DNA from: Acidimicrobiales bacterium
GTDB lineage: Bacteria > Actinomycetota > Acidimicrobiia > Acidimicrobiales > SZUA-35
DNA: 64,000 nucleotides
NCBI GenBank assembly: GCA_020630065.1
Contig: JAHDCC010000002.1
Coordinates: 204,092 to 268,091, forward strand
Direction of reading: 5' to 3'
In this document: one piece after another, positions 41,034-57,853 of the stretch
Layout: every line of letters starts with the position of its first letter
Numbering within the stretch: position 1 is the first letter of the stretch
The notes under the pieces: generated by a model
What the model saw: the letters and a program-made list of their open reading frames with translations, nothing else
Database searches by the model: none
Told to the model about the DNA's origin: nothing
Program-made: the position numbers and the translations under genes

Positions 41034-41960
41034 TTATTGACGGTGAGGGAACGGAATAGTCATTAGATCCTCGGCTACGACCACGTCTTGATGATGAACA
41101 CGTGCCTGATCGCCGAGCAGAGATGTATCTGGATATCGAGCTGAGAAGTGAGTTAATACCAGACGGCGAGCGTTTGTTTCTTGAGCTAGTTGGCCCGCCT
41201 GGCCTGCTGTTAGGTGCTGGTATTTGCTGGCAAGGTCGGCTTGTTCGTTAGCGAAAGTTGACTCGCATACTAAAAGGTCTACACCATCGGCCAGCTCGGC
41301 TGCCCCGTCACACAACTCGGTGTCCATGACAAAAGCCATCGACTGTCCGGCCTGTGTAATCGAGACCTGCTCAATAGTTGTGGTCTGACCATCGACCGTG
41401 ACGAATCCGTTTGCTAGGAGTTCTCCGACTATCGGGCCGGAAAGGCCGCGGTCTGACAGGGCCTGTTTGTTTAGTTTCTGGCGGTCTGGTTCGTCCAGCC
41501 TGTATCCGAAGGTAGTGATGCGGTGTTTGAGCTCTGCGGTAGAGAGTTGAAGATCTCCGATTTTGTCTACCGGTCCGTTGCCGTTGACGGGGGTGGGTTT
41601 GCTGTAAGACTGGTCGTAGAACGATGAGCAAGTCAACAGACGGTCTAAGAACTTAGCGCCGTCTATCGGGAAGAAGATGGGGAGTCCAGGTGGCGTAATG
41701 TTGTTGTGGGTATTGTCGAGGGAACGCCGTTGGATAACGCCTGGTAGTCCCAGGCAGTGATCGCCATGAAAATGGGAAATACAAATGGCGGTCAGGCGGT
41801 TTAGATTAACCCCGGCAAGAATCGCTTGCCGTTGTGTGTTCTCTCCTGGGTCAAACAGTATGGTCTGACTATCGAAACGTAGAACGGTGCTGACATGGGC
41901 CCGTGTGCGGGTAGGGGCCTGGCTGCCGGTGCCTAAAATGACCAGTTCCCTCGAAGACAT
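41034..41960 (-). CDS. rnz: Ribonuclease Z (MBL-fold tRNA 3' endonuclease)
   Basis: ELVILGTGSQAPT start, HFHGDHCLGLPG metal motif and late THFSARY. ATG at 41960 preferred over the ORF-track start. Confidence 0.8.
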   Translation of the reverse strand: MSSRELVILGTGSQAPTRTRAHVSTVLRFDSQTILFDPGENTQRQAILAGVNLNRLTAICISHFHGDHCLGLPGVIQRRSLDNTHNNITPPGLPIFFPIDGAKFLDRLLTCSSFYDQSYSKPTPVNGNGPVDKIGDLQLSTAELKHRITTFGYRLDEPDRQKLNKQALSDRGLSGPIVGELLANGFVTVDGQTTTIEQVSITQAGQSMAFVMDTELCDGAAELADGVDLLVCESTFANEQADLASKYQHLTAGQAGQLAQETNARRLVLTHFSARYPDTSLLGDQARVHHQDVVVAEDLMTIPFPHRQ

Positions 41961-42041
41961 AATGCTGTTACCCTGACAGAATACTGGCAAGCCTTGGACG
42001 GGCCTGCCGTGTACAATTTTGCGTAATAACCAAGAAAGCTA

Positions 42042-48183: not shown

Positions 48184-48247
48184 CCTCTTCATACATAGCT
48201 CTTTATTGTCGGTCCGCGGGTTTAGTGGTCGAGCTGTGTTCAAGAGG
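48184..48247. terminator. Imperfect long hairpin between convergent response-regulator and lrp genes
   Basis: cctctt...gctc pairs with gagc...aagagg, with a mismatched middle. Weak call. Confidence 0.3.
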
Positions 48248-48257
48248 TTGGTACAGG

Positions 48258-48704
48258 TTAACGAAGGACCGAGCTGAGGAGCAGGCTTGTTTCGCTATTG
48301 ACTACTCCGGCGATTCCTCGTATGTGGCCGAGTACTTGGTCAAATTCGGGGAGCGAAGTGACGTGGATTTCCGCCACCAAATCCCATCCTCCGTTGGTTG
48401 AGTGAAGCGCCCGAACCTGGTGGAGACCTCGGAGCTGTTGAATGACTGCGGTGGTCGTTCGGCCTTCAACCTCTATCAGAGAAATTGCTCGGATCGTGTC
48501 AAAGTCTTCGTTTTCTCTGACCCGAACCGTGAAACCAAGAACGGTGCCATTTTCCTCGAGTCTCTCAAGGCGGTTGTTGACCGTCGCTCTGGAAACGCCG
48601 ATACGGCGAGCCAGCGTAGTCACCGGGGCTCGGGCATTGGTGCGTAGCTCCGCAATGAGTTTGCGATCGACATCGTCTAGCTCGAACATAGCCATATTGT
48701 ACAT
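48258..48704 (-). CDS. Lrp/AsnC-family transcriptional regulator
   Basis: LDDVDRKLIAELRTNARAPVTTLARRIGVSRATVNNRLERLEENG HTH plus a C-terminal RAM/ACT-like domain. Confidence 0.9.
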   Translation of the reverse strand: MYNMAMFELDDVDRKLIAELRTNARAPVTTLARRIGVSRATVNNRLERLEENGTVLGFTVRVRENEDFDTIRAISLIEVEGRTTTAVIQQLRGLHQVRALHSTNGGWDLVAEIHVTSLPEFDQVLGHIRGIAGVVNSETSLLLSSVLR

Positions 48705-48815
48705 TTCAGGTGTCGTTTTGTTTAGAAGTAAGCCAAATAGCTAACTTTTTGTTTCTTGTGGTGCAATATCGGCAAAATTATCCTGATATGTAGGACCCAA
48801 ATACAAGGAGAAGCC

Positions 48816-49829
48816 ATGGTTACATTCGTCAACGTCCAGAACGTGGCATCATGGATTTCAGCCGTCGGTGTTGAACCCATCATCGACGGAATGGTGTCGT
48901 ATCTCGAAGCCGATTTCGGTCGCTGGGACCGCTTTGACAAGACTCCCAGAGTGGCAAGCCACTCGCTATACGGCGTAATCGAACTTATGCCTACCAGCGA
49001 CGGAACCACCTATGGCTTCAAATACGTCAACGGGCACCCGGTCAACCCAAAACGTGGTCTCCAGACCGTCACCGCCTTTGGTGTGCTCGCAGATGTTGAA
49101 AGCGGGTACCCCACATTCATCTCTGAAATGACGCTACTTACCGCCCTACGGACTGCCGCAACCTCGGCGATGGCAGCCAAACTCTTGGTCCCCAAAGATG
49201 CCACAACAATGGCCATGATCGGAACCGGCTCACAATCAGAATTTCAAGCCCTTGGGTTTCGGAGCGTTCTCGGAATCGAGAGCCTTCGTATCTGGGACAC
49301 CGACCCGGATGCGATGGCAAAACTAGTTACCAACATCGAACCATTAGGATTCGATATCACCGTTGCCTCGAGCGCCGCCGATGCACTCGACGGGGCACAA
49401 ATCATCACGACCTGCACAGCCGACAAAACCAACGCCACAATTCTCAATGACGCCGATATTGTCGGCGGTGTCCACATCAACGCCATCGGCGGTGATTGTC
49501 CAGGAAAAACCGAACTAGACACCGCCCTTCTGCGTCGTTCGATGATCGCAGTTGAATACACCGAACAAACCCGCATCGAAGGTGAAATTCAGCAGCTCGA
49601 AGAAAATTGGCCGGTAACTGAACTTTGGGAGATCTTGACCGGCAAGAAACCGGGAAGATCCGACGCCGAACAGATAACGATCTTTGACTCTGTTGGGTTC
49701 GCGATTGAGGACTTTTCCGCATTGAGGTATCTACGAGACGGGGTCGAGGGGACCGATTTTTTCGATTCGCTGGACCTGATCGCCGACCCGGAAGATCCGA
49801 AAAACCTCTACGGAATGTTGGATGTCTAA
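48816..49829 (+). CDS. ocd: Ornithine cyclodeaminase
   Basis: Collinear with Pseudomonas putida OCD as I recall it (RVASHS..GVIELMP, FKYVNGHP, VTAFGVLADVESGYP, NAIGGDCPGKTEL, QTRIEGEIQQL, IFDSVGFAIEDFS). ATG at 48816 is preceded by aaggaga. Confidence 0.9.
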   Translation: MVTFVNVQNVASWISAVGVEPIIDGMVSYLEADFGRWDRFDKTPRVASHSLYGVIELMPTSDGTTYGFKYVNGHPVNPKRGLQTVTAFGVLADVESGYPTFISEMTLLTALRTAATSAMAAKLLVPKDATTMAMIGTGSQSEFQALGFRSVLGIESLRIWDTDPDAMAKLVTNIEPLGFDITVASSAADALDGAQIITTCTADKTNATILNDADIVGGVHINAIGGDCPGKTELDTALLRRSMIAVEYTEQTRIEGEIQQLEENWPVTELWEILTGKKPGRSDAEQITIFDSVGFAIEDFSALRYLRDGVEGTDFFDSLDLIADPEDPKNLYGMLDV

Positions 49830-52800
49830 TGGGTGGCTTAAACCGAAACCACAATGTCGGTGTAGCAGAACCTGCATCGGACTGGCCGGTAGAGGACCTG
49901 GTAGAACCGGCCATCAAACTTGTCGCCCATTGGCTTGAGCGATACGGCGAGCTGGAAACCCGGCAAGATCGTCGAGCGATGGAACGACTCTTCGAACTTA
50001 TCCAAGACGACGATGGCGTCGATTTTGTGATGAAATTCATCGACCGGGTAACCCGCCCAGACGATGTAGCCGTAGCTGCTCGACAGTTGGCAACGTTGGT
50101 GAACTCGGCACAGCTGCCAACGTTCTTGTCGCAGGTAGACCGGGCACTGCTCCGAGCGGGAGCGGTTGTGGCTCCTCGGCTGCCGAAGGTCGTGATCCCA
50201 TTGGCGTTATGGCGAATGCGTTCGATCGTTGGGCACTTGGTGGCTCCGGCCGATCACAAATCGTTACGTAAACACATGGAAACACAGCGGGCTGCCGGTT
50301 ACCAGTCCAATGTCAACCTGCTCGGAGAAGCCGTTCTGGGGGAGCGAGAAGCCCAGGCTCGCCTCGACGGACTACTGGCAATGGTAGAGGTGCCTGAGGT
50401 CGACTATGTGTCGGTAAAGACCAGCGCAGTTGCTTCACAACTTAACCACTGGGACTACGACGCTTCTCTTGAACGAGTAATAGATCGAGTCGCTCATCTC
50501 ATCGATCGGGCCGCAGCCGCCACTCCGCCAACGTTCGTCAACTTCGATATGGAGGAATACCACGACCTTGGGTTAACCGTCGATGCGTTTCGTTCGGTTC
50601 TCGACGAACCAGAACGTAGCGGCGTCGACGCTGGGATCGTGCTGCAAGCGTACTTACCTGACGTATTCGATGTGCTGCGTGGCCTTGTCGAGTGGGCTAA
50701 TGAACGTCATCAAAAAGGCGGAGGGACGATCAAGATCCGGTTGGTGAAGGGTGCCAATTTGGCTATGGAAAAAGTTGATGCCGCCATGCACGGATGGGAA
50801 CAGGCACCGTACACAAACAAGGCCGATACCGACGCGAGTTATAAACGCTGCGTTGATTGGCTACTGAGGGAGGAAAACGTGACTGGTGTTCAGGTTGGAA
50901 TCGCCAGTCACAATCTTTTTGATGTTGCGTGGGCTTGGCTGGTAGCTCAGCGGCGCAACGTGGCCGATCGTGTCCAGTTCGAAATGCTGCAAGGCATGTC
51001 TCCGGCACAGGCGGCGGCAGTCAACGAAACAACAGAATCTCAAGCCCCGCTATTGCTGTACACGCCAGCGGTTTCTGACGACGACTTTGATGTCGCTATC
51101 GGCTACCTTTTTCGACGACTAGAAGAGAACGCGGCCGAAGATAACTTCATGCGGTCCTTGTTCGATTTGCGACCTGGATCGGACGAGTTCCTGGCCCAAG
51201 CACAATCGTTTCGCGCATCGGTTGAACGGCGCCTACAGGTCGGTACTGGTCCCGCCCGCCAGCAGAACCGAACCGCCGAGGTCGTTCCACATTCAACCGA
51301 ATTCGGCTTTGTGAACGAGGCCGATACGGACCCCAGTCTGGCTGCCAACAGGTCATGGATAGCCAGCGTCGTTTCCACCCCGTTTGTACGATGTCGCACC
51401 GAGCTGACCGTTGAGCGGGGAGGGGTCGATTCGATCGTTCAGACCGCTAGGTCGGCTGCCCATAGCTGGAGAGACGTGTCGCCTCAAGCGAGACGATCAA
51501 CCCTCTATAAGGTCGCCGATGAACTATCTAGACGTAGAGGCGAGTTGCTTTCTACGATGATGAACGAAGCATCAAAGACTATTAGCGAAGCCGATAGCGA
51601 AGTGTCAGAAGCCATTGACTTCGCCCGATGGTACGGCGACCGCTGTCTTGAGCTGGACGAACAGCCCGGTGCCACCTTCACCCCTCATGGGGTTGTTGGA
51701 GTTATACCTCCTTGGAACTTTCCTGTCGCGATTCCGGCTGGTGGTGTGTTTGCCGGCTTAGCAGCCGGAAATTCGGTGGTGCTCAAACCGTCTCTGCTGA
51801 CTCCTCGCTGTGCTGAACTAGTCGCCGAAATATGTTGGGACGCCGGAGTGGGAAGGGACGTGTTGCAGTTTGTGCTTACCGAGGACAACGATGTCGGTCG
51901 TCACCTGGTCGAGTCGTTCGACGCCGTAATCCTCACCGGGTCGTGTGAGACCGCCGACCTTTTTCGTTCATGGAAACCCGACATAAACCTGCTGGCAGAA
52001 ACTTCCGGCAAGAACGTCATCATCGTCACCCCTAGCGCCGATATCGATTCGGCAGTTGAACAGCTTGTTGTGTCGGCGTTTGGTCATGCTGGACAGAAAT
52101 GTTCAGCGGCCAGCCTCGTGCTAGCGGTCGGAAGTGTAAATGGCGATCAGCGGTTTAGAAGTCAACTGATCGACGCTGTCGAGAGTTTGACCGTAGGAAG
52201 CTCGACGGAGTTGGGTACAGATATTGCCCCACTAGTTGGGGGCGGGAACGAACGCTTGTCACGAGTCGTATCAAAATTGGATGGTCAACAACGTTGGCTA
52301 GTGGAGCCCCAAGTTCACAATGGTGTTATGACTCCTGGTGTGCTCGATGGGGTAACCCCAGAGTCGTGGTTTTATCAGACCGAATGTTTTGGGCCTGTGT
52401 TAGGAATTGTGTATGTGCGGGATCTAACCGAAGCGATCGCTATGGCAAACGGCAGCGCGTTTGGGCTTACCGGCGGTATCCAATCTCTTGACCCAGCGGA
52501 GATTAAAAAGTGGATGGAAACTATCGAGGTCGGGAACGGTTATGTCAACCGGTCGATTACTGGCGCTATCGTTCGGCGTCAACCTTTTGGCGGATGGAAA
52601 CGTAGCTCGGTTGGTCTTGGAGCTAAAGCTGGAGGTAGTAACTATCTGATGCAACTCGGGACCTGGGGAGTTTCTGAACCCGGAATCTCCGATGACTATA
52701 AACAACAGTGGGAAACCCACTTCTCTCGACAGCACGATGATGCCGGGTTGTTCTGCGAAGCCAACATTTTTCGATACCGACCATACGACGTAGTTGGCTT

Positions 52801-53152
52801 GCTAATAAGCCAACACGCAACTGAGGCAGAGGTGAACCGGGTAAGAAAAGCCGCTCGGCTCTGCGGCGTTCGACTAGCCGAATTGCAACTCGGCGAAGGT
52901 GTATCTGAACAAGTCGAATCGTTGTCGCGGCTCGGTGTTGAACGAATCCGGTTGGTCGGTGCTGAACCGTCGATGGAACTGCGTAACGCCGCGATCGGGC
53001 AAGGAATCCATCTCATCTCTGGCCCGGTCACACCATCGGGGCGTCTGGAACTACAGCACTATCTTAGAGAACAAGCCATGTCTGTGACACTACATCGATT
53101 CGGGAATTTGGTATTGAACCCGTTGCTGACCGAAGCAGGAACGACGACATGA
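49829..53152 (+). CDS. putA: Bifunctional proline dehydrogenase / L-glutamate-gamma-semialdehyde (P5C) dehydrogenase PutA, without an N-terminal DNA-binding domain
   Basis: 1107 aa. PRODH TIM-barrel region (VNLLGEAV, IRLVKGAN, SHNLFD, FEMLQGM) then an aldehyde dehydrogenase domain (PWNFP, ETSGKN, catalytic GQKCSAAS). Start overlaps the ocd stop (TAATG). Confidence 0.92.
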   Translation: MGGLNRNHNVGVAEPASDWPVEDLVEPAIKLVAHWLERYGELETRQDRRAMERLFELIQDDDGVDFVMKFIDRVTRPDDVAVAARQLATLVNSAQLPTFLSQVDRALLRAGAVVAPRLPKVVIPLALWRMRSIVGHLVAPADHKSLRKHMETQRAAGYQSNVNLLGEAVLGEREAQARLDGLLAMVEVPEVDYVSVKTSAVASQLNHWDYDASLERVIDRVAHLIDRAAAATPPTFVNFDMEEYHDLGLTVDAFRSVLDEPERSGVDAGIVLQAYLPDVFDVLRGLVEWANERHQKGGGTIKIRLVKGANLAMEKVDAAMHGWEQAPYTNKADTDASYKRCVDWLLREENVTGVQVGIASHNLFDVAWAWLVAQRRNVADRVQFEMLQGMSPAQAAAVNETTESQAPLLLYTPAVSDDDFDVAIGYLFRRLEENAAEDNFMRSLFDLRPGSDEFLAQAQSFRASVERRLQVGTGPARQQNRTAEVVPHSTEFGFVNEADTDPSLAANRSWIASVVSTPFVRCRTELTVERGGVDSIVQTARSAAHSWRDVSPQARRSTLYKVADELSRRRGELLSTMMNEASKTISEADSEVSEAIDFARWYGDRCLELDEQPGATFTPHGVVGVIPPWNFPVAIPAGGVFAGLAAGNSVVLKPSLLTPRCAELVAEICWDAGVGRDVLQFVLTEDNDVGRHLVESFDAVILTGSCETADLFRSWKPDINLLAETSGKNVIIVTPSADIDSAVEQLVVSAFGHAGQKCSAASLVLAVGSVNGDQRFRSQLIDAVESLTVGSSTELGTDIAPLVGGGNERLSRVVSKLDGQQRWLVEPQVHNGVMTPGVLDGVTPESWFYQTECFGPVLGIVYVRDLTEAIAMANGSAFGLTGGIQSLDPAEIKKWMETIEVGNGYVNRSITGAIVRRQPFGGWKRSSVGLGAKAGGSNYLMQLGTWGVSEPGISDDYKQQWETHFSRQHDDAGLFCEANIFRYRPYDVVGLLISQHATEAEVNRVRKAARLCGVRLAELQLGEGVSEQVESLSRLGVERIRLVGAEPSMELRNAAIGQGIHLISGPVTPSGRLELQHYLREQAMSVTLHRFGNLVLNPLLTEAGTTT

Positions 53153-54054
53153 ACCTTTCACTAACAAATGTCCATCTCGATTTAGGTGCAGGGCGGCGGG
53201 GTACCGATATGGGGCCCAGTGCGATACACGTTGCCGGTTTGGTGCCTGCGCTAGAAAAATTGGGTCATACGATCGAAGCGGTTGAAAGTATTACGGCACC
53301 AAGTTACGAATCGGTCGACGCCGGTGATCCGAACGCCCGTTTTTTACTTGAGATACATAAGGTCTGTTCGCAGGTGGCTGGTGTCGTTGCCCGTAGCGTG
53401 ACGGTTGGCCAGTTGCCGTTGGTGTTGGGTGGTGATCATGCCCTAGCGATGGGAAGTATCTCTGGGTTGGCTAGACACTACCGGACGAAAGGTCAGCGGG
53501 TTGGCGTGTTGTGGGTGGACGCCCATACCGATATGAACACCCCGGACACTACGCCGAGTGGCAATGTGCACGGCATGCCGCTGGCGGCCTTGCTAGGTAT
53601 CGGGCACCCGGACTTGGTCGGGTTGGCTGGATCGGAGCCGGCGTTAGACGCCCGTGATGTGGTGGTTGTTGGTGCCCGCGATATCGACTCCACCGAGCTG
53701 GCCCTCGTGAAGGACCTAGGGGTCAGGGTTTACACGATGCATGAGATCGACCGGCGCGGAGCTGCTGTTTGTTTTGAGGAAGCGCTTGAACAAGTAACTC
53801 GAGATACAGCTGGAGTGCACGTTTCGTTTGATCTGGACGGAGTTGACCCCGAGTGCGCTCCTGGGGTTGGAACTCCAGTTCCAGGTGGTCTGACTTTGCG
53901 GGAATCGCATCTGATTTGTGAGATGGTAAATCAAACAGGTGCGTTGCTCGGTTTGGAGATGGTGGAGCTCAATCCGACTTTTGATCATGAGAATAAGACT
54001 GGTCGGCTGGCCGTGTGGCTGGTTCAATCGGCACTAGGCAAAACTATTTTGTAG
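53149..54054 (+). CDS. rocF: Arginase
   Basis: Ureohydrolase Mn-binding motifs [20 protein letters not shown] and SFDLDGVDP, plus [14 protein letters not shown] overlap with putA. Confidence 0.92.
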
Positions 54055-54089: not shown

Positions 54090-54773
54090 TCAGTGTTGTC
54101 GGCGGACCGGTGGGTGGAGTTGGGTGGCTGGGCCGGGTCGGAAGAGTTGGGCGGGTCGACCACGACCGGCTGAGGTATGTTCACCTGTTGGTTCAACAAA
54201 ACCTTCGCTGGCAAGGACTTTGCGGTGAAAGTTTCGTGGGTCAATGGTCGTATCCCAGACGAGTTCGTAGACGTGGCGTAGGTCGGCGATGGTGAATGGG
54301 TTGGAACAGAAGCTGGCTGCAAGAGTGGTGTATTCGAGTTTGGCTCGGGCACGTTCTAAGCCATCTTGTAGGATTGTCAAGTGGTCGAAGGCCATCTTGG
54401 TAGACAGTGTCGCTGATAGGGGGGACCATTGAGCACTGGCGGCGTCGGTTCCCGCTACTGGTGTGGCTAAATCGGCGGCGAAGGCGAGATAGGCGACACT
54501 GACGGTTCTCATGCGGGGATCTCTTTTAGGGGTGCCGTATGTGCCCAGTTGTTCAAGGTGTAGACGGTCGACCGATCCGATGTTGGTTTCTTCGAGTAGC
54601 TCTCGTGCCGCAGCGGTGTCAAGATCCTCGTTGACTTTGACGAACCCTCCTGGGAGGGCTTTGCGTCCCTTAAATGGGGACTCCCCTCGGCGTATGGTCA
54701 GGACGTGGAGGGCGTCGTCGCGGATCGTGAATACGACAAGGTCAACCGTGACGGCAAAGGGTGGGAAGGCCAT
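54090..54773 (-). CDS. nrtR: NrtR-type regulator (Nudix domain fused to a C-terminal winged helix)
   Basis: Near-canonical Nudix box GGFVKVNEDLDTAAARELLEETNI (the final G is replaced by N). C-terminal block FTIADLRHVYELVWDTTIDPRNFHRKV...GRGRPAQLFR is typical of the NrtR wHTH. ATG at 54773 (MAFPPF) preferred over the ORF-track start. Confidence 0.75.
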   Translation of the reverse strand: MAFPPFAVTVDLVVFTIRDDALHVLTIRRGESPFKGRKALPGGFVKVNEDLDTAAARELLEETNIGSVDRLHLEQLGTYGTPKRDPRMRTVSVAYLAFAADLATPVAGTDAASAQWSPLSATLSTKMAFDHLTILQDGLERARAKLEYTTLAASFCSNPFTIADLRHVYELVWDTTIDPRNFHRKVLASEGFVEPTGEHTSAGRGRPAQLFRPGPATQLHPPVRRQH

Positions 54774-54791
54774 AGGTCGAGTATATGTGAC

Positions 54792-54826
54792 TATCGTCGA
54801 CTTGACGATAAACCCTTTTATCGTCA
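54792..54826. promoter_or_regulatory. Inverted repeat TATCGTC-N5-GACGATA plus a third half-site (TTATCGTCA); candidate NrtR operator
   Basis: Read directly (IR 54792..54810, extra half-site 54818..54826) in the 91-bp divergent region between nrtR and the SPFH gene. Confidence 0.45.
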
Positions 54827-54864
54827 TACTGAGGATAAATGAAATCGAAACTTCGAAAGGAACT

Positions 54865-55893
54865 ATGGACATGGCAAACATAACCCTCCGGCCCCTGGTC
54901 CGGCACCTCCAGGTCTCCTCCAACACCTATATTCGTCAGACCAGATCTGGCAAAGTCATCAAGGCCGGTGCAGGCCAATCCTTCTGGTTCAGGCCTCGAA
55001 CGTCCAGTATCAGCGAACTGCCGTTAGACGAACGAGAACTACCACTGATCTTTCGAGACCGGACGATCGACTATCAAGAAGTCGCCGTCCAAGCGTCGGT
55101 CACCTATCGATTCGTCGACCCAGAAACCGCCGTCAACCGAATCGACTTCACCATCGACAACACAAACGGGCTATGGACCTCAACCCCACTAGAACAAGTC
55201 GGCGGTCTTCTCACAGAGCTGGCCCAACAACACGCAGTAAGCGTCTTAGCTAACATGAAACTCACCGACGTCATGGCAAACGGCATCACCCGTCTACGGG
55301 ATTCGATAACGACCGGACTTCGCGGAGACGACCGTATCGAACAAACCGGTATCGAAATCGTCGATGTTCGAGTTGTCGCAGTCCGACCGGGCCCCGAAAT
55401 GGAAAAGGCGCTTCAAACCCCTATCAGAGAACAACTGCAGCAGAAAGCAGACAAAGCTACCTTCGAACGGCGGGCGTTAGCGGTAGAACAAGAACGCGGG
55501 ATCAGCGAAAACGAACTACAAAACCGAATCGAACTAGCAAAACAAGAAGAGCAGTTAGTCATTCAACAAGGAGCAAACGAACAAAAGCGAATCGCCGACG
55601 AAGTCAACGCCACCAAAATCAAGGTCGCAGGCGATGCTCAGAATGTAGAAGTTCGGGGTAAAGCGAAAGCGCAGGCGATGCGAGAAGTAGGTGCCGCCGA
55701 GGCCGAAACCGAACGCAGCAAGGTCGAAGCGTACACCGACGCCGGCGACGCTGTACTGTTGGCCTTGGCGGTTAAAGACCTGGCGGGCAACCTGCCAAAC
55801 GTAGGCACATTAGTGGTTAGCCCAGAAATGATCACGCCGCTTCTTGCCAAACTAGTCAGCGCCGAAAAACAATCTGGCGAAGGTAAAAACTAA
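54865..55893 (+). CDS. SPFH/Band-7 domain protein without a recognisable TM segment, with a long C-terminal coiled-coil-like region
   Basis: 342 aa from ATG 54865. SPFH-like core (QEVAVQASVTYRFVDPE ... GIEIVDVRVVAVRP..EMEKAL) followed by an Ala/Glu/Lys/Gln-rich helical region. The ORF-track N-terminal 118 aa run antisense through nrtR and are rejected. Confidence 0.75.
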   Translation: MDMANITLRPLVRHLQVSSNTYIRQTRSGKVIKAGAGQSFWFRPRTSSISELPLDERELPLIFRDRTIDYQEVAVQASVTYRFVDPETAVNRIDFTIDNTNGLWTSTPLEQVGGLLTELAQQHAVSVLANMKLTDVMANGITRLRDSITTGLRGDDRIEQTGIEIVDVRVVAVRPGPEMEKALQTPIREQLQQKADKATFERRALAVEQERGISENELQNRIELAKQEEQLVIQQGANEQKRIADEVNATKIKVAGDAQNVEVRGKAKAQAMREVGAAEAETERSKVEAYTDAGDAVLLALAVKDLAGNLPNVGTLVVSPEMITPLLAKLVSAEKQSGEGKN

Positions 55894-56777
55894 TGGCTGT
55901 TTCTCCTAGGGCCTTGATTATCACGAGGCCCACCGAATACGACCAGCTTCTGGGAACACACGGCACCCGCCAGCAAGTTTCATTCTTCCTGGAACAACGA
56001 GGACAGACGATCACTGAACTTGACGAACGCCATTCGTTGCAGCAACAAGCGATGCAGGTAGTGTCAAAGGCCATTCCAACCGAATGGCGTCGAGCACGAC
56101 TGGACCGCGCGGACTTGGACCGATTCGTCTTTGGCCCCGAAGACATCATCGTGGCCGTTGGTCAAGATGGGTTAGTGGCCAATGTTGCAAAGTATCTCGA
56201 CGGCCAGCCTGTTGTTGGCGTAAACCCAGACCCAATCCGAAACCCTGGAGTGTTAGTCGCCCATAAGGCCGACATGGTCGCCGAGATTTTCCGCACATTG
56301 ATTGGAGGTAGGGCCACGTTCGAACACCGAGCGATGGTTGAAGTCGAATCCGATGACGGACAGCGCCTTGCTGCTCTCAACGAAATTTTCGTAGGACACC
56401 ACGGACATCAATCTGCTAGATATCGCATCGAGGTCGATGACGCGAGCGAGGTCCACAGCTCGTCAGGGATTCTGATTGGAACAGGAACCGGGGCGACTGG
56501 ATGGTGCGGGTCGGTTCATCGAGAACGCAACCTTGCTTGGGAACTGCCAGAAGTGACATCGACCGATCTAGCTTGGTTCGTTCGCGAAGCCTGGCCGTCT
56601 CCATGGACCGGCACCACCTTGACTGCAGGGCGACTTTCAACCGGAACGTTGAGAATTCGTTGTGAAAGTGACCGACTCGTAGCGTTCGGTGACGGCATCG
56701 AAGCCGACCATATCGAACTCTCATGGGGGCAGTGGCTGACAGTCAGCCCAGCAAAAGAAGCTCTCGTTTTAGTATGA
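55893..56777 (+). CDS. NAD-kinase-fold protein (divergent; GGDG motif replaced by GQDG)
   Basis: IIVAVGQDGLVANV (GGDG-like), ALNEIFV (NE motif) and SSGILIGTGTGATGW (compare the NadK xDGxxxSTPTGSTAY block). ATG overlaps the SPFH stop (TAATG). Confidence 0.65.
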   Translation: MAVSPRALIITRPTEYDQLLGTHGTRQQVSFFLEQRGQTITELDERHSLQQQAMQVVSKAIPTEWRRARLDRADLDRFVFGPEDIIVAVGQDGLVANVAKYLDGQPVVGVNPDPIRNPGVLVAHKADMVAEIFRTLIGGRATFEHRAMVEVESDDGQRLAALNEIFVGHHGHQSARYRIEVDDASEVHSSSGILIGTGTGATGWCGSVHRERNLAWELPEVTSTDLAWFVREAWPSPWTGTTLTAGRLSTGTLRIRCESDRLVAFGDGIEADHIELSWGQWLTVSPAKEALVLV

Positions 56778-56785
56778 AATAACAA

Positions 56786-57424
56786 ATGAAGGAATCCATG
56801 AACCAACGAATGAACGACCCCAGCGACATCCCTACCCGTCAGATACGAGCGGTCTACAACAAAGACACCATCAGGGTGTATCAAGCCTATGGACCCTCAA
56901 TCGCTGAATCGCTCCACTTCAACGGAGCATTTGTCGAACCCCCATTCAAAATGACACGTATGACGTGGATCAAACCGTCGTTTCTCTGGATGATGTACCG
57001 CTGTGGATGGTCGTATAAAGACGACGGCCAACGCCGAGTGTTCGCCTTTGATATCAAACGGGACGGATTCGAATGGGCACTAGCCAATAGTTGTTCGAGT
57101 CACCCCAAAGGCCTAACCAAAACAGAGGCCCGCAAATTGATGGATACCCATCCGGTTCGCGTGCAATGGGACCCCGAACGAGATCTTCATCTCAACCCTT
57201 TGTCACATCGGTCAATCCAAGTAGGGCTGAGTCGTGAAGCGATACAACACTACGTACACGATTGGATAGTCGACTTCGAAGAAATAACCGATCAGGCCAA
57301 GAAAATATATGAGCTTGTCCAAACCGAAGAATTCGCCCAAGCAAACTCGCTGCTGCCAGCCGAACAGCCATATCCATTGCCGGATGAACTAGTCGCCCAT
57401 GTACAAGCCAGTCCAGTCATATAA
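56786..57424 (+). CDS. DUF4291-family protein
   Basis: IRAVYNKDTIRVYQAYGPSIA and RMTWIKPSFLWMMYRCGW blocks match my recollection of DUF4291 proteins. It starts 8 nt after the preceding stop. Confidence 0.6.
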   Translation: MKESMNQRMNDPSDIPTRQIRAVYNKDTIRVYQAYGPSIAESLHFNGAFVEPPFKMTRMTWIKPSFLWMMYRCGWSYKDDGQRRVFAFDIKRDGFEWALANSCSSHPKGLTKTEARKLMDTHPVRVQWDPERDLHLNPLSHRSIQVGLSREAIQHYVHDWIVDFEEITDQAKKIYELVQTEEFAQANSLLPAEQPYPLPDELVAHVQASPVI

Positions 57425-57454
57425 AGCGCTGTAATGACTCGGATGGTTTGGCTT

Positions 57455-57853
57455 TTACGGTCCGTCGAGTTCTTTGATAAGTTTTTTTGGAGCGATCATT
57501 CGATAGGCGTCCCGCAAAATAGCGTCAACCTCATCCCAGTCGAGATCAATGTCGAGACGTAAACCGATCCAACCTCGATGACCAACATAGGGCGGGACAA
57601 AGAAACGCTCCGGCTCCCGGTCAACCAATTCTGCTTGAACGCCAACCGGTGCCGCACACCACAAAGCGACTGCTCCGTCATCGCCTCCTGAAGATTTGTG
57701 GCTTCCTTCCCACAAACTACACAACACTTTCTTGTCGCGAATAAAGAAAGTCGGGGTGTGATGAGATGGGCGTTCAGAGACTTCCGGGTAACGAGCACAG
57801 ACCTCTCGCAGATCCTCCAGAATATTCTGAGCTTCCACAGATTCGATTGCCAT
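57455..57853 (-). CDS. MmcQ/YjbR-family protein
   Basis: 132 aa with the YPEVSERPSHHTPTFFIRDKKVL ... GWIGLRLD pattern typical of the YjbR (DUF419) family. Confidence 0.6.
   Translation of the reverse strand: MAIESVEAQNILEDLREVCARYPEVSERPSHHTPTFFIRDKKVLCSLWEGSHKSSGGDDGAVALWCAAPVGVQAELVDREPERFFVPPYVGHRGWIGLRLDIDLDWDEVDAILRDAYRMIAPKKLIKELDGP

Follow-up and report, generated by a model that had tools for sequence, protein, structure and literature searches.

An nrtX–nrtY-type SPFH–kinase gene pair under a predicted NrtR double operator, with an accessory DUF4291 gene, in an Acidimicrobiales contig

Organisation of the locus

The window analyzed here is a 64,000-nt stretch of contig JAHDCC010000002.1 from an Acidimicrobiales bacterium, and we examined a four-gene locus within it, in which a gene for an NrtR-type regulator (nrtR) lies head-to-head with genes for an SPFH/Band-7 protein, a NAD-kinase-fold protein (NAD, nicotinamide adenine dinucleotide) and a DUF4291 protein (Table 1). 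An earlier interpretation made from the letters of this DNA and its open reading frames (hereafter the sequence-only reading) had described this layout, and its features were recovered at the positions given: the Nudix plus winged-helix regulator gene divergent from three closely packed genes, a divergent intergenic region of 91 bp (54774–54864), and the overlap TAATG at 55891–55895, where both the open reading frame listing and the raw sequence place the SPFH stop codon TAA over the kinase ATG at 55893.

Alternative start codons were considered for two of the genes. The SPFH gene may start at 54865 or at 54871. For the DUF4291 gene, ATG 56798 is favored over 56786; it is preceded by AAGGA at 56789–56793, and in the public annotation of near-identical contigs the protein has 208 aa. 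The 8-nt gap that had been described between the kinase gene and the third gene holds for the 56786 start, but the likelier start gives 20 nt; the spacing is operon-like in both cases. A terminator scan found no convincing plus-strand terminator 3' of 57424.

Table 1. Genes, operators and promoter-like sites of the locus, in coordinates of the 64,000-nt window.
Feature	Position	Strand	Basis
nrtR: Nudix + winged-helix NrtR-family regulator, 227 aa	54090..54773	-	Pfam, NCBIfam, ortholog position
nrtX-type SPFH/Band-7 protein, 342 aa (340 aa from ATG 54871)	54865..55893	+	Pfam, gene order
nrtY-type NADK2-like NAD-kinase-fold protein (predicted), 294 aa	55893..56777	+	profiles, motifs, model
DUF4291 protein, 212 aa (208 aa from ATG 56798 more likely)	56786..57424	+	Pfam, AlphaFold2/Foldseek
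NrtR operator 1 (predicted) CTATCGTCGACTTGACGATAA, 21-bp palindrome, GT-N7-AC core	54791..54811	.	consensus match
NrtR operator 2 (predicted) TTATCGTCATACTGAGGATAA, GT-N7-AG, one mismatch to family consensus	54818..54838	.	consensus match
Promoter-like site, SPFH operon: TTGACG, 17 nt, CATACT	54802..54830	+	consensus match only
Promoter-like site, nrtR: TCGTCA, 17 nt, TATACT	54780..54808	-	consensus match only

The regulator and its operators

Domain searches bore out the NrtR-type identity proposed for the regulator. Pfam detected a NUDIX domain (PF00293, 9.1e-16, residues 13–136) followed by the DNA-binding winged-helix domain NrtR_WHD (PF21906, 1.6e-15, residues 158–212), and the operators described below have the published NrtR form. 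Against the NCBIfam equivalog NF050029 (ADPR-responsive repressor NtrR), the protein scored 137.1 bits (6.8e-40), below the cut-off of 400. By these profiles, it is a member of the NrtR family that falls outside the NF050029 orthologous group. Its Nudix box, GFVKVNEDLDTAAARELLEETNI, is almost intact relative to GX5EX7REUXEEX-N-U, and REx2EE is kept in 43–46 of the 46 actinobacterial NrtR orthologs of the group. Because the box is essentially intact in these orthologs, the actinobacterial regulators may also hydrolyze their own ligand. In other phyla, the NrtR proteins encoded beside the SPFH–kinase pair have a degenerate Nudix box with Lys at two of the Glu positions, a pattern that suggests a regulator catalytically competent in one clade only.

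The sequence-only reading had reported an inverted repeat plus a third half-site in the divergent region. The repeat is present, but the region actually holds two tandem, full 21-bp palindromic sites of NrtR type. With up to 3 mismatches allowed, the consensus TTATCGTCA-N3-TGACGATAA matches the 64-kb window twice, at these two operators, where 0.02 matches are expected by chance. Published NrtR sites are 21-bp palindromes with a GT-N7-AC core (PMC2330246); operator 1 fits this core exactly and operator 2 has GT-N7-AG. A consensus scan placed the predicted -35 hexamer of the operon within operator 1, which also overlaps the predicted nrtR -35, and the predicted -10 hexamer of the operon within operator 2. 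With this geometry, a repressor would control its own gene along with the operon. The operator 1 half TTGACG is conserved across homologous loci.

Conservation of the SPFH–kinase pair across phyla

We scanned genomes with the kinase, taking one genome per species. At least 521 relatives were found, and the actinobacterial counts given below come from the best 80 of them, which all belong to Actinomycetota or to a few Chloroflexi metagenome-assembled genomes and share 52–71% identity with the query kinase. An exhaustive HMMER search over 1.84 billion cluster representatives (E <= 1e-30) returned 229 clusters, which include full-length relatives at 33–39% identity. With an alignment of these distant relatives as the query, at least 591 further genomes were found in Gamma-, Beta- and Alphaproteobacteria, Paenibacillus, Clostridia, Verrucomicrobiota, Planctomycetota and Nitrospirota, and the best 80 were again used for counts (the other-phyla set). 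Both scans, whose totals are lower bounds, together place the kinase in well over 1,000 species-level genomes.

The SPFH gene lies immediately 5' of the kinase gene in 79/80 actinobacterial and 77/80 other-phyla loci, and the SPFH stop overlaps the kinase start in 66 of those 79 and 34 of those 77, respectively. A divergent NrtR gene is present at 46/80 actinobacterial loci and is not adjacent in Streptomyces, Kitasatospora and Actinomadura; in the other-phyla set, an NrtR gene lies within 4 kb at 33/80 loci. Nearly all of the 80 actinobacterial loci have two TTATCGTCA-N3-TGACGATAA sites upstream of the SPFH gene, and this includes the loci of Streptomyces, where nrtR is found elsewhere. Morganellaceae and their relatives (Providencia, Xenorhabdus, Proteus) carry two TTAnTGTCA-N3-AGACAnTAA sites, a TGTC-N5-GACA variant, 33 nt apart. 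The SPFH–kinase pair, its stop/start overlap and the double operator are conserved across at least 8 phyla, and no conserved third gene follows the pair among the 80 actinobacterial loci. SPFH and kinase form a tightly coupled, widely co-occurring pair, accompanied across phyla by NrtR genes and sites; the sequence-only reading had proposed such a check across genomes for the trio. Its suggestion of a link to NAD or ADP-ribose also held for the pair: neighbors in the other-phyla set include genes for ADP-ribosylglycohydrolase (7 loci), NamPT/nadV (7), pncB (6), pncA (3) and prs (3).

The kinase family is also found on accessory replicons, namely Rhizobium megaplasmids and small tet(H) plasmids. 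On the chromosome of Proteus mirabilis (L247, 2166–6849), the nrtR<>SPFH–kinase module directly adjoins tet(J), and on the Moraxella osloensis plasmid pNP7-1 (L248, 3103–7850) it adjoins tetR(H)-tet(H). The plasmid-borne kinase copies from Moraxella, Acinetobacter and uncultured bacteria share about 80% protein identity with the Xenorhabdus kinase. The module has apparently travelled with tetracycline efflux genes. Two PLSDB entries labelled as Proteus mirabilis plasmids, NZ_OL790811.1 and NZ_OL790812.1, are about 4.08 Mb long and are evidently chromosomes.

Correspondence to nrtX–nrtY

The founding NrtR paper (Rodionov et al. 2008, Nucleic Acids Research 36:2047, PMC2330246) lists nrtX–nrtY among the NrtR targets without an assigned function, in its groups Actinobacteria-2b and Gammaproteo-1a. 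Table 1 of that paper gives the arrangements as #nrtR2; #nrtX-nrtY for Streptomyces (2), nrtR2<#>nrtX-nrtY for Kineococcus and Frankia alni, nrtR<#>nrtX-nrtY for Proteus mirabilis and #nrtX-nrtY for Hahella. The loci retrieved here reproduce these layouts: nrtR is divergent from the SPFH–kinase pair in Frankia (L069), the pair carries two sites with no adjacent nrtR in Streptomyces, and the P. mirabilis chromosome has nrtR<>SPFH–kinase with NrtR-like sites. Because organisms and arrangements match the published table, the SPFH–kinase pair is very likely nrtX–nrtY, although the main text of PMC2330246 gives no gene products for these names.

The present locus shares with the nrtX–nrtY divergon the regulator type, the 21-bp operator form and the divergent layout of Frankia and Proteus; the separate-locus layout listed for Streptomyces also agrees with the Streptomyces loci retrieved here. 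It differs in its Acidimicrobiales host, in an operator spacing of 27 bp instead of 33–34 bp, and in the extra DUF4291 gene. Since the arrangement matches nrtX–nrtY, the locus cannot be called undescribed, as the sequence-only reading had proposed; its statement that none of the genes is a known type of NrtR target is likewise wrong for the pair, which was listed in 2008. The locus thus adds one more example of a pair that had already been listed; it is not categorically new, but the pair makes a concrete target for work on NAD biology. What is new here is the NADK2 likeness of nrtY, how broadly the pair occurs and how tightly its genes are coupled, the double operator shared across phyla and the demotion of DUF4291 to an accessory gene. 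Our literature search found the SPFH–kinase pair in the 2008 NrtR paper and in no later one. Public annotations call the kinase a "hypothetical protein", a "sugar kinase" or an "ATP-NAD kinase PpnK-type protein".

The kinase resembles mitochondrial NADK2

The motifs of the kinase are VGQDG (residues 89–93), LNEIF (162–166, with N163-E164) and GTGTGATGW (196–204, ending in W204), which confirms the earlier observation that the NE and TGTGATGW blocks of NAD kinases are kept and that GGDG is changed to GQDG. A phmmer search of the PDB returned human mitochondrial NADK2 first (4e-12), with Thermotoga maritima NADK at 2e-6. A family profile covering both clades, actinobacterial and other-phyla, gave 7e-21 for NADK2 versus 4e-7 for the best canonical NADK, and its alignment to NADK2 extends N-terminally into the helical region and takes in a REP motif common to both. 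The AlphaFold2 model of the kinase (predicted local distance difference test score, pLDDT, 87.7) has the two-domain NAD-kinase fold; the top 50 Foldseek matches in the PDB are all NAD kinases, again with NADK2 first and E-values down to 6e-13.

Residues G90, G93, N163, S190-S191-G192 and W204 are invariant across both clades, and D92 is present in at least 90% of sequences. In NADK2, D161 of the GGDG motif is catalytic and W319 stacks on the nicotinamide ring (PMC9245612); the kinase aligns D92 with D161 and W204 with W319. The motifs of C5orf33-type enzymes are PX-GXN(T/S)DP plus an invariant Trp (Ohashi 2012), and the kinase sequence PVVGVNPDP fits the first of these except for Pro in place of Thr/Ser. 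The EMKA insert, which is animal-specific (PMC9245612), is absent from the 294-aa kinase, where gaps stand opposite the NADK2 residues, and the kinase has no mitochondrial targeting.

Among characterized enzymes, NADK2 (C5orf33) and plant NADK3 are therefore the closest comparison, NADK2 being the best match in sequence, profile and structure. NADK2 and the kinase have in common the catalytic Asp, the NE motif, the SSG...TGTGxxxW block, PhxGhNxDP and the REP motif. The kinase differs in its low identity (about 17–18% in the Foldseek alignments), in GQDG for GGDG, in the missing EMKA insert and adenine-stacking His, and in being bacterial, paired with an SPFH gene and, by prediction, NrtR-regulated. 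Canonical NadK/PpnK (PF01513/PF20143; Mycobacterium tuberculosis PpnK, 1u0r) shares the two-domain fold (Foldseek E about 1e-11) and the NE and Gly-rich motifs, whereas the kinase has Trp for Tyr in motif III, another N-terminal helical region, sub-threshold scores, an accessory distribution and predicted repressor control. On these comparisons, the kinase appears to be a NAD-kinase-fold enzyme of the NADK2 type, and NAD(H) kinase is its most likely activity.

The fold and motifs of an NAD kinase would also suit the cell's only housekeeping NadK, and a motif scan of the 64-kb window and the homologous loci found no canonical nadK in the window and one truncated fragment at the edge of L132. 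We consider this identity highly improbable. The kinase scored at best 40.6 bits against the NCBIfam NadK equivalogs (for a model with a cut-off of 260), far below all of their cut-offs of 211–371, and its gene stands under a predicted repressor. Its distribution is patchy and extends to the Rhizobium megaplasmids and small tet(H) plasmids; a nucleotide blastn search with an enterobacterial copy gave 0 matches in 5,426 Escherichia coli genomes, a weak negative at blastn sensitivity. Canonical nadK/ppnK is essential, and Mycobacterium, Streptomyces, Rhizobium and Proteus have it in addition to an nrtY-type gene. Because of the patchy distribution, the plasmid and megaplasmid locations and the essential canonical nadK of these carrier genera, the kinase is very probably not the housekeeping enzyme; the sequence-only reading had named a housekeeping identity as fatal to its own proposal.

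The SPFH protein lacks a membrane anchor

Pfam assigned the SPFH protein to Band_7 (PF01145, 2.1e-14, residues 20–199), and its C-terminal half is long, helical and rich in Glu, Ala and Lys. No transmembrane segment or anchor was detected in it, as had been noted before: the maximum Kyte-Doolittle mean over 19 residues is 1.42, near the C-terminus, and four SPFH homologues reach maximum means of 1.3–1.8. No close solved structure was found, the best being HflK at E 0.03 with the family profile, and no NCBIfam model matched. With the stomatin–NfeD, HflK/HflC and flotillin operons, nrtX shares a Band_7 domain with a long helical stretch after it, as well as the tight two-gene operon. It differs from these proteins in lacking a membrane anchor and in having a kinase as its partner, not NfeD or a protease, and its similarity to HflK is marginal.

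DUF4291 is a lineage-specific addition

The third gene encodes a full-length DUF4291 protein (PF14124, 5.7e-67, model positions 1–180). DUF4291 has been predicted to be an atypical ADP-ribosyltransferase (ART) with the motifs QA[YF], WIK and [AS]IQ (BMC Genomics 2025, PMC12522546), and the sequence-only reading's statement that the family has no assigned function is to that extent superseded. The prediction was reproduced here. The motifs QAY, WIK and SIQ are present, with Q33-A34-Y35, W61-I62-K63 and I144-Q145 invariant or nearly so. A sequence search of the PDB gave no significant match for the protein; its AlphaFold2 model (pLDDT 93.3) retrieved the RhsP2 ART toxin first with Foldseek (E 6e-5, probability 1.0), followed by exotoxin A, PltA, PARP4 and RES. 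The modelled fold is thus ART-like. Neither an H-Y-E nor an R-S-E catalytic triad is present in the DUF4291 protein; the equivalent positions hold Q/Y, W-I-K and Q. It therefore resembles RhsP2 (7rt7) and the DUF4291 ART-like family in its full-length match, three motifs and modelled fold, and differs from RhsP2 in lacking the triad, the secretion/Rhs context and an immunity gene, and in standing under a predicted NrtR promoter.

The sequence-only reading had made the co-occurrence of SPFH, NADK-like and DUF4291 genes a test of its proposal, and this claim failed. DUF4291 adjoins the pair at 0/80 actinobacterial and 2/80 other-phyla loci and is thus absent from 158/160, including those of the closest kinase relatives (70–71% identity). 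Conversely, NrtR, SPFH or kinase genes were found near none of the 80 closest DUF4291 loci, which come from Planctomycetota, Acidimicrobiales, Stenotrophomonas, Variovorax and many Streptomyces. A conserved trio is ruled out by these counts. Because DUF4291 is missing from nearly all pair loci and its nearest relatives lack the other three genes, it is a local addition: DUF4291 is a lineage-specific add-on, and the conserved unit is the pair under predicted NrtR control.

An obligate three-part NAD/ADP-ribose module made of SPFH, kinase and DUF4291 is, with these distributions, decidedly unlikely, despite the packing of the genes in this lineage (1-nt overlap, then a gap of 8–20 nt). Two lineages unrelated to each other, Pseudomonadales (L165, in the order nadV-DUF4291-SPFH-kinase) and Bacillota (L211), do have DUF4291 next to the pair. 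We judge this recurrence, by a rough estimate with no computed statistic, to exceed chance given the rarity of the family. DUF4291 neighborhoods elsewhere are also rich in Nudix, Macro, ADP-ribosylglycohydrolase (ARH) and Tpt1 genes (PMC12522546). The GC content of the DUF4291 and YjbR genes (56900–57800) is 49–51%, slightly lower than the 53–57% around them, a weak hint that this stretch was acquired separately.

Both of the other DUF4291-bearing loci have peculiarities of their own. In L165 (2099–2352), an insert of about 250 nt interrupts the DUF4291 gene precisely inside the conserved W[IV]K motif; the insert had no match in Rfam, and an intron, a small mobile element or pseudogenization are candidates. 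In L211 (481–2943), a Bacillota metagenome-assembled genome, DUF4291 is separated from the SPFH–kinase pair by the gene for an 820-aa protein that ends in a methyltransferase domain; no Pfam match was found for the N-terminal 540 residues of this protein.

We also weighed a conflict or anti-phage module, in which the kinase and an ART-fold effector would interfere with NAD pools during infection and SPFH would serve as a membrane or abortive-infection component. The RhsP2 toxin as best structural match of DUF4291, the occurrence of the module on plasmids and a strain-variable 5.9-kb segment abutting nrtR speak for such a role, yet it is more improbable still than the obligate trio. PADLOC-DB 2.0 gave no match for the SPFH, kinase or DUF4291 protein, and the Nudix part of the regulator matched PDC-S07 weakly (E 3e-4). 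Synteny is stable at 50–60% identity across hundreds of Actinomycetota species, the neighbors are NAD salvage genes and not defense genes, no immunity partner is present, and the SPFH protein lacks a membrane segment. A defense system was rejected on the missing PADLOC matches of the operon proteins and the NAD-salvage neighbors.

Proposed mechanism

Taken together, we favor, with a probability of roughly 0.55, a reading in which nrtR diverges across two operators from nrtX (SPFH) and nrtY (NADK2-like), DUF4291 being added in this Acidimicrobiales lineage, and in which the pair provides an auxiliary NAD(H) kinase that is derepressed by ADP-ribose and has an SPFH partner. NrtR dimers on both operators would repress nrtXY and nrtR itself. 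Characterized NrtR proteins release DNA upon binding ADP-ribose (PMC2330246), and by analogy ADP-ribose, as a signal of NAD consumption, would release NrtR here. Derepression together with translational coupling would yield SPFH and kinase jointly and in stoichiometric amounts, with SPFH as a soluble oligomer. The kinase would phosphorylate the 2'-OH of NAD+ and/or NADH to form NADP(H) and would supplement the housekeeping NadK as an inducible NAD(H) kinase, and the SPFH oligomer would scaffold or gate it. The DUF4291 product would be an enzyme or binder of ART fold that binds NAD; its gene would simply have been recruited to the promoter that responds to ADP-ribose, and would be co-expressed.

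Several points weigh against this reading. At the level of regulation, the promoter hexamers are no more than matches to a consensus, the effector is taken over from other NrtR proteins, and operator 2 carries the core mismatch GT-N7-AG. The start-to-start spacing of the operators is 27 bp, compared with 33–34 bp in almost all other loci, the proteobacterial ones included, and two bound dimers would therefore face differently here. Gene order and translational coupling are the only grounds for a physical SPFH–kinase interaction, and our search of the literature found no biochemical or genetic data on any member of the pair. At the level of the enzyme, the kinase reaches 18.3 bits against PF01513 NAD_kinase, short of the threshold of 25.5, and falls below every NCBIfam NadK cut-off; the second Gly of GGDG is Q, P, I, R or A across the family and never G; and His191 of NADK2, which stacks on the adenine, is not conserved in the phmmer alignment. 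Because GGDG is replaced and the NAD-kinase thresholds are missed, the substrate or the phosphate donor could differ.

These same features would suit an enzyme that phosphorylates another NAD-derived molecule, such as ADP-ribose, nicotinic acid adenine dinucleotide or a nucleoside-diphosphate sugar, for the disposal or salvage of NAD breakdown products and not for NADP(H) synthesis; SPFH partner and NrtR control would be unchanged. Characterized NrtR relatives sense ADP-ribose (PMC2330246), and an ADP-ribosylglycohydrolase gene adjoins the pair in 7 loci, both in keeping with such a substrate. We nevertheless regard it as unlikely, given that the counterpart of the nicotinamide-stacking Trp of NADK2 is invariant in the NrtY family, that the nearest characterized homologues, NADK2 and plant NADK3, are NAD+/NADH kinases, and that all structural neighbors found by Foldseek are NAD kinases. 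An auxiliary NAD(H) kinase is therefore kept as the preferred activity.

A more specific version of the auxiliary-kinase reading is tentative. In it, a soluble SPFH assembly would hold or gate a NADK2-type NAD(H) kinase switched by ADP-ribose, NrtY would be the prokaryotic sister group, hitherto unrecognized, of the eukaryotic mitochondrial NADK2/NADK3 clade, and in this lineage an ART-fold DUF4291 enzyme would be wired into the circuit. To our knowledge, NADP synthesis in bacteria is generally ascribed to a single housekeeping NadK. The pair would add a second, repressor-controlled NAD-kinase-fold enzyme, one that has stood unexplained in the NrtR regulon since 2008. An NADK2-type identity opens three hypotheses: an NAD(H) kinase induced by ADP-ribose, an SPFH scaffold with a soluble client, and a candidate relative, in bacteria, of the mitochondrial enzyme mutated in human NADK2 deficiency. 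The origin of the mitochondrial NADK2/NADK3 clade has been called unknown (PMC6675116). The actinobacterial "nadK2" of Vickman & Erives (PMC6675116) may or may not belong to the NrtY family. For the 64-kb window, the analysis corrects the boundary of the gene set: the unit is the pair and not the trio.

Neighboring features of the window

The 5.9-kb segment at 48188–54045, which ends 44 nt from the nrtR stop codon, is absent from a metagenome contig of 99% identity (L161) and present in another (L244). It encodes an AsnC-type regulator, ornithine cyclodeaminase, PutA and arginase, and is a strain-level indel of a block for arginine, ornithine and proline catabolism. At about 41034–41990 on the minus strand (equivalent to 558–1484 of L161) lies a chromosomal metallo-beta-lactamase-fold gene that adjoins G6PD and carries a precomputed Pfam match to Anti-Pycsar_Apyc1, a family known from phages whose members degrade cyclic nucleotides.

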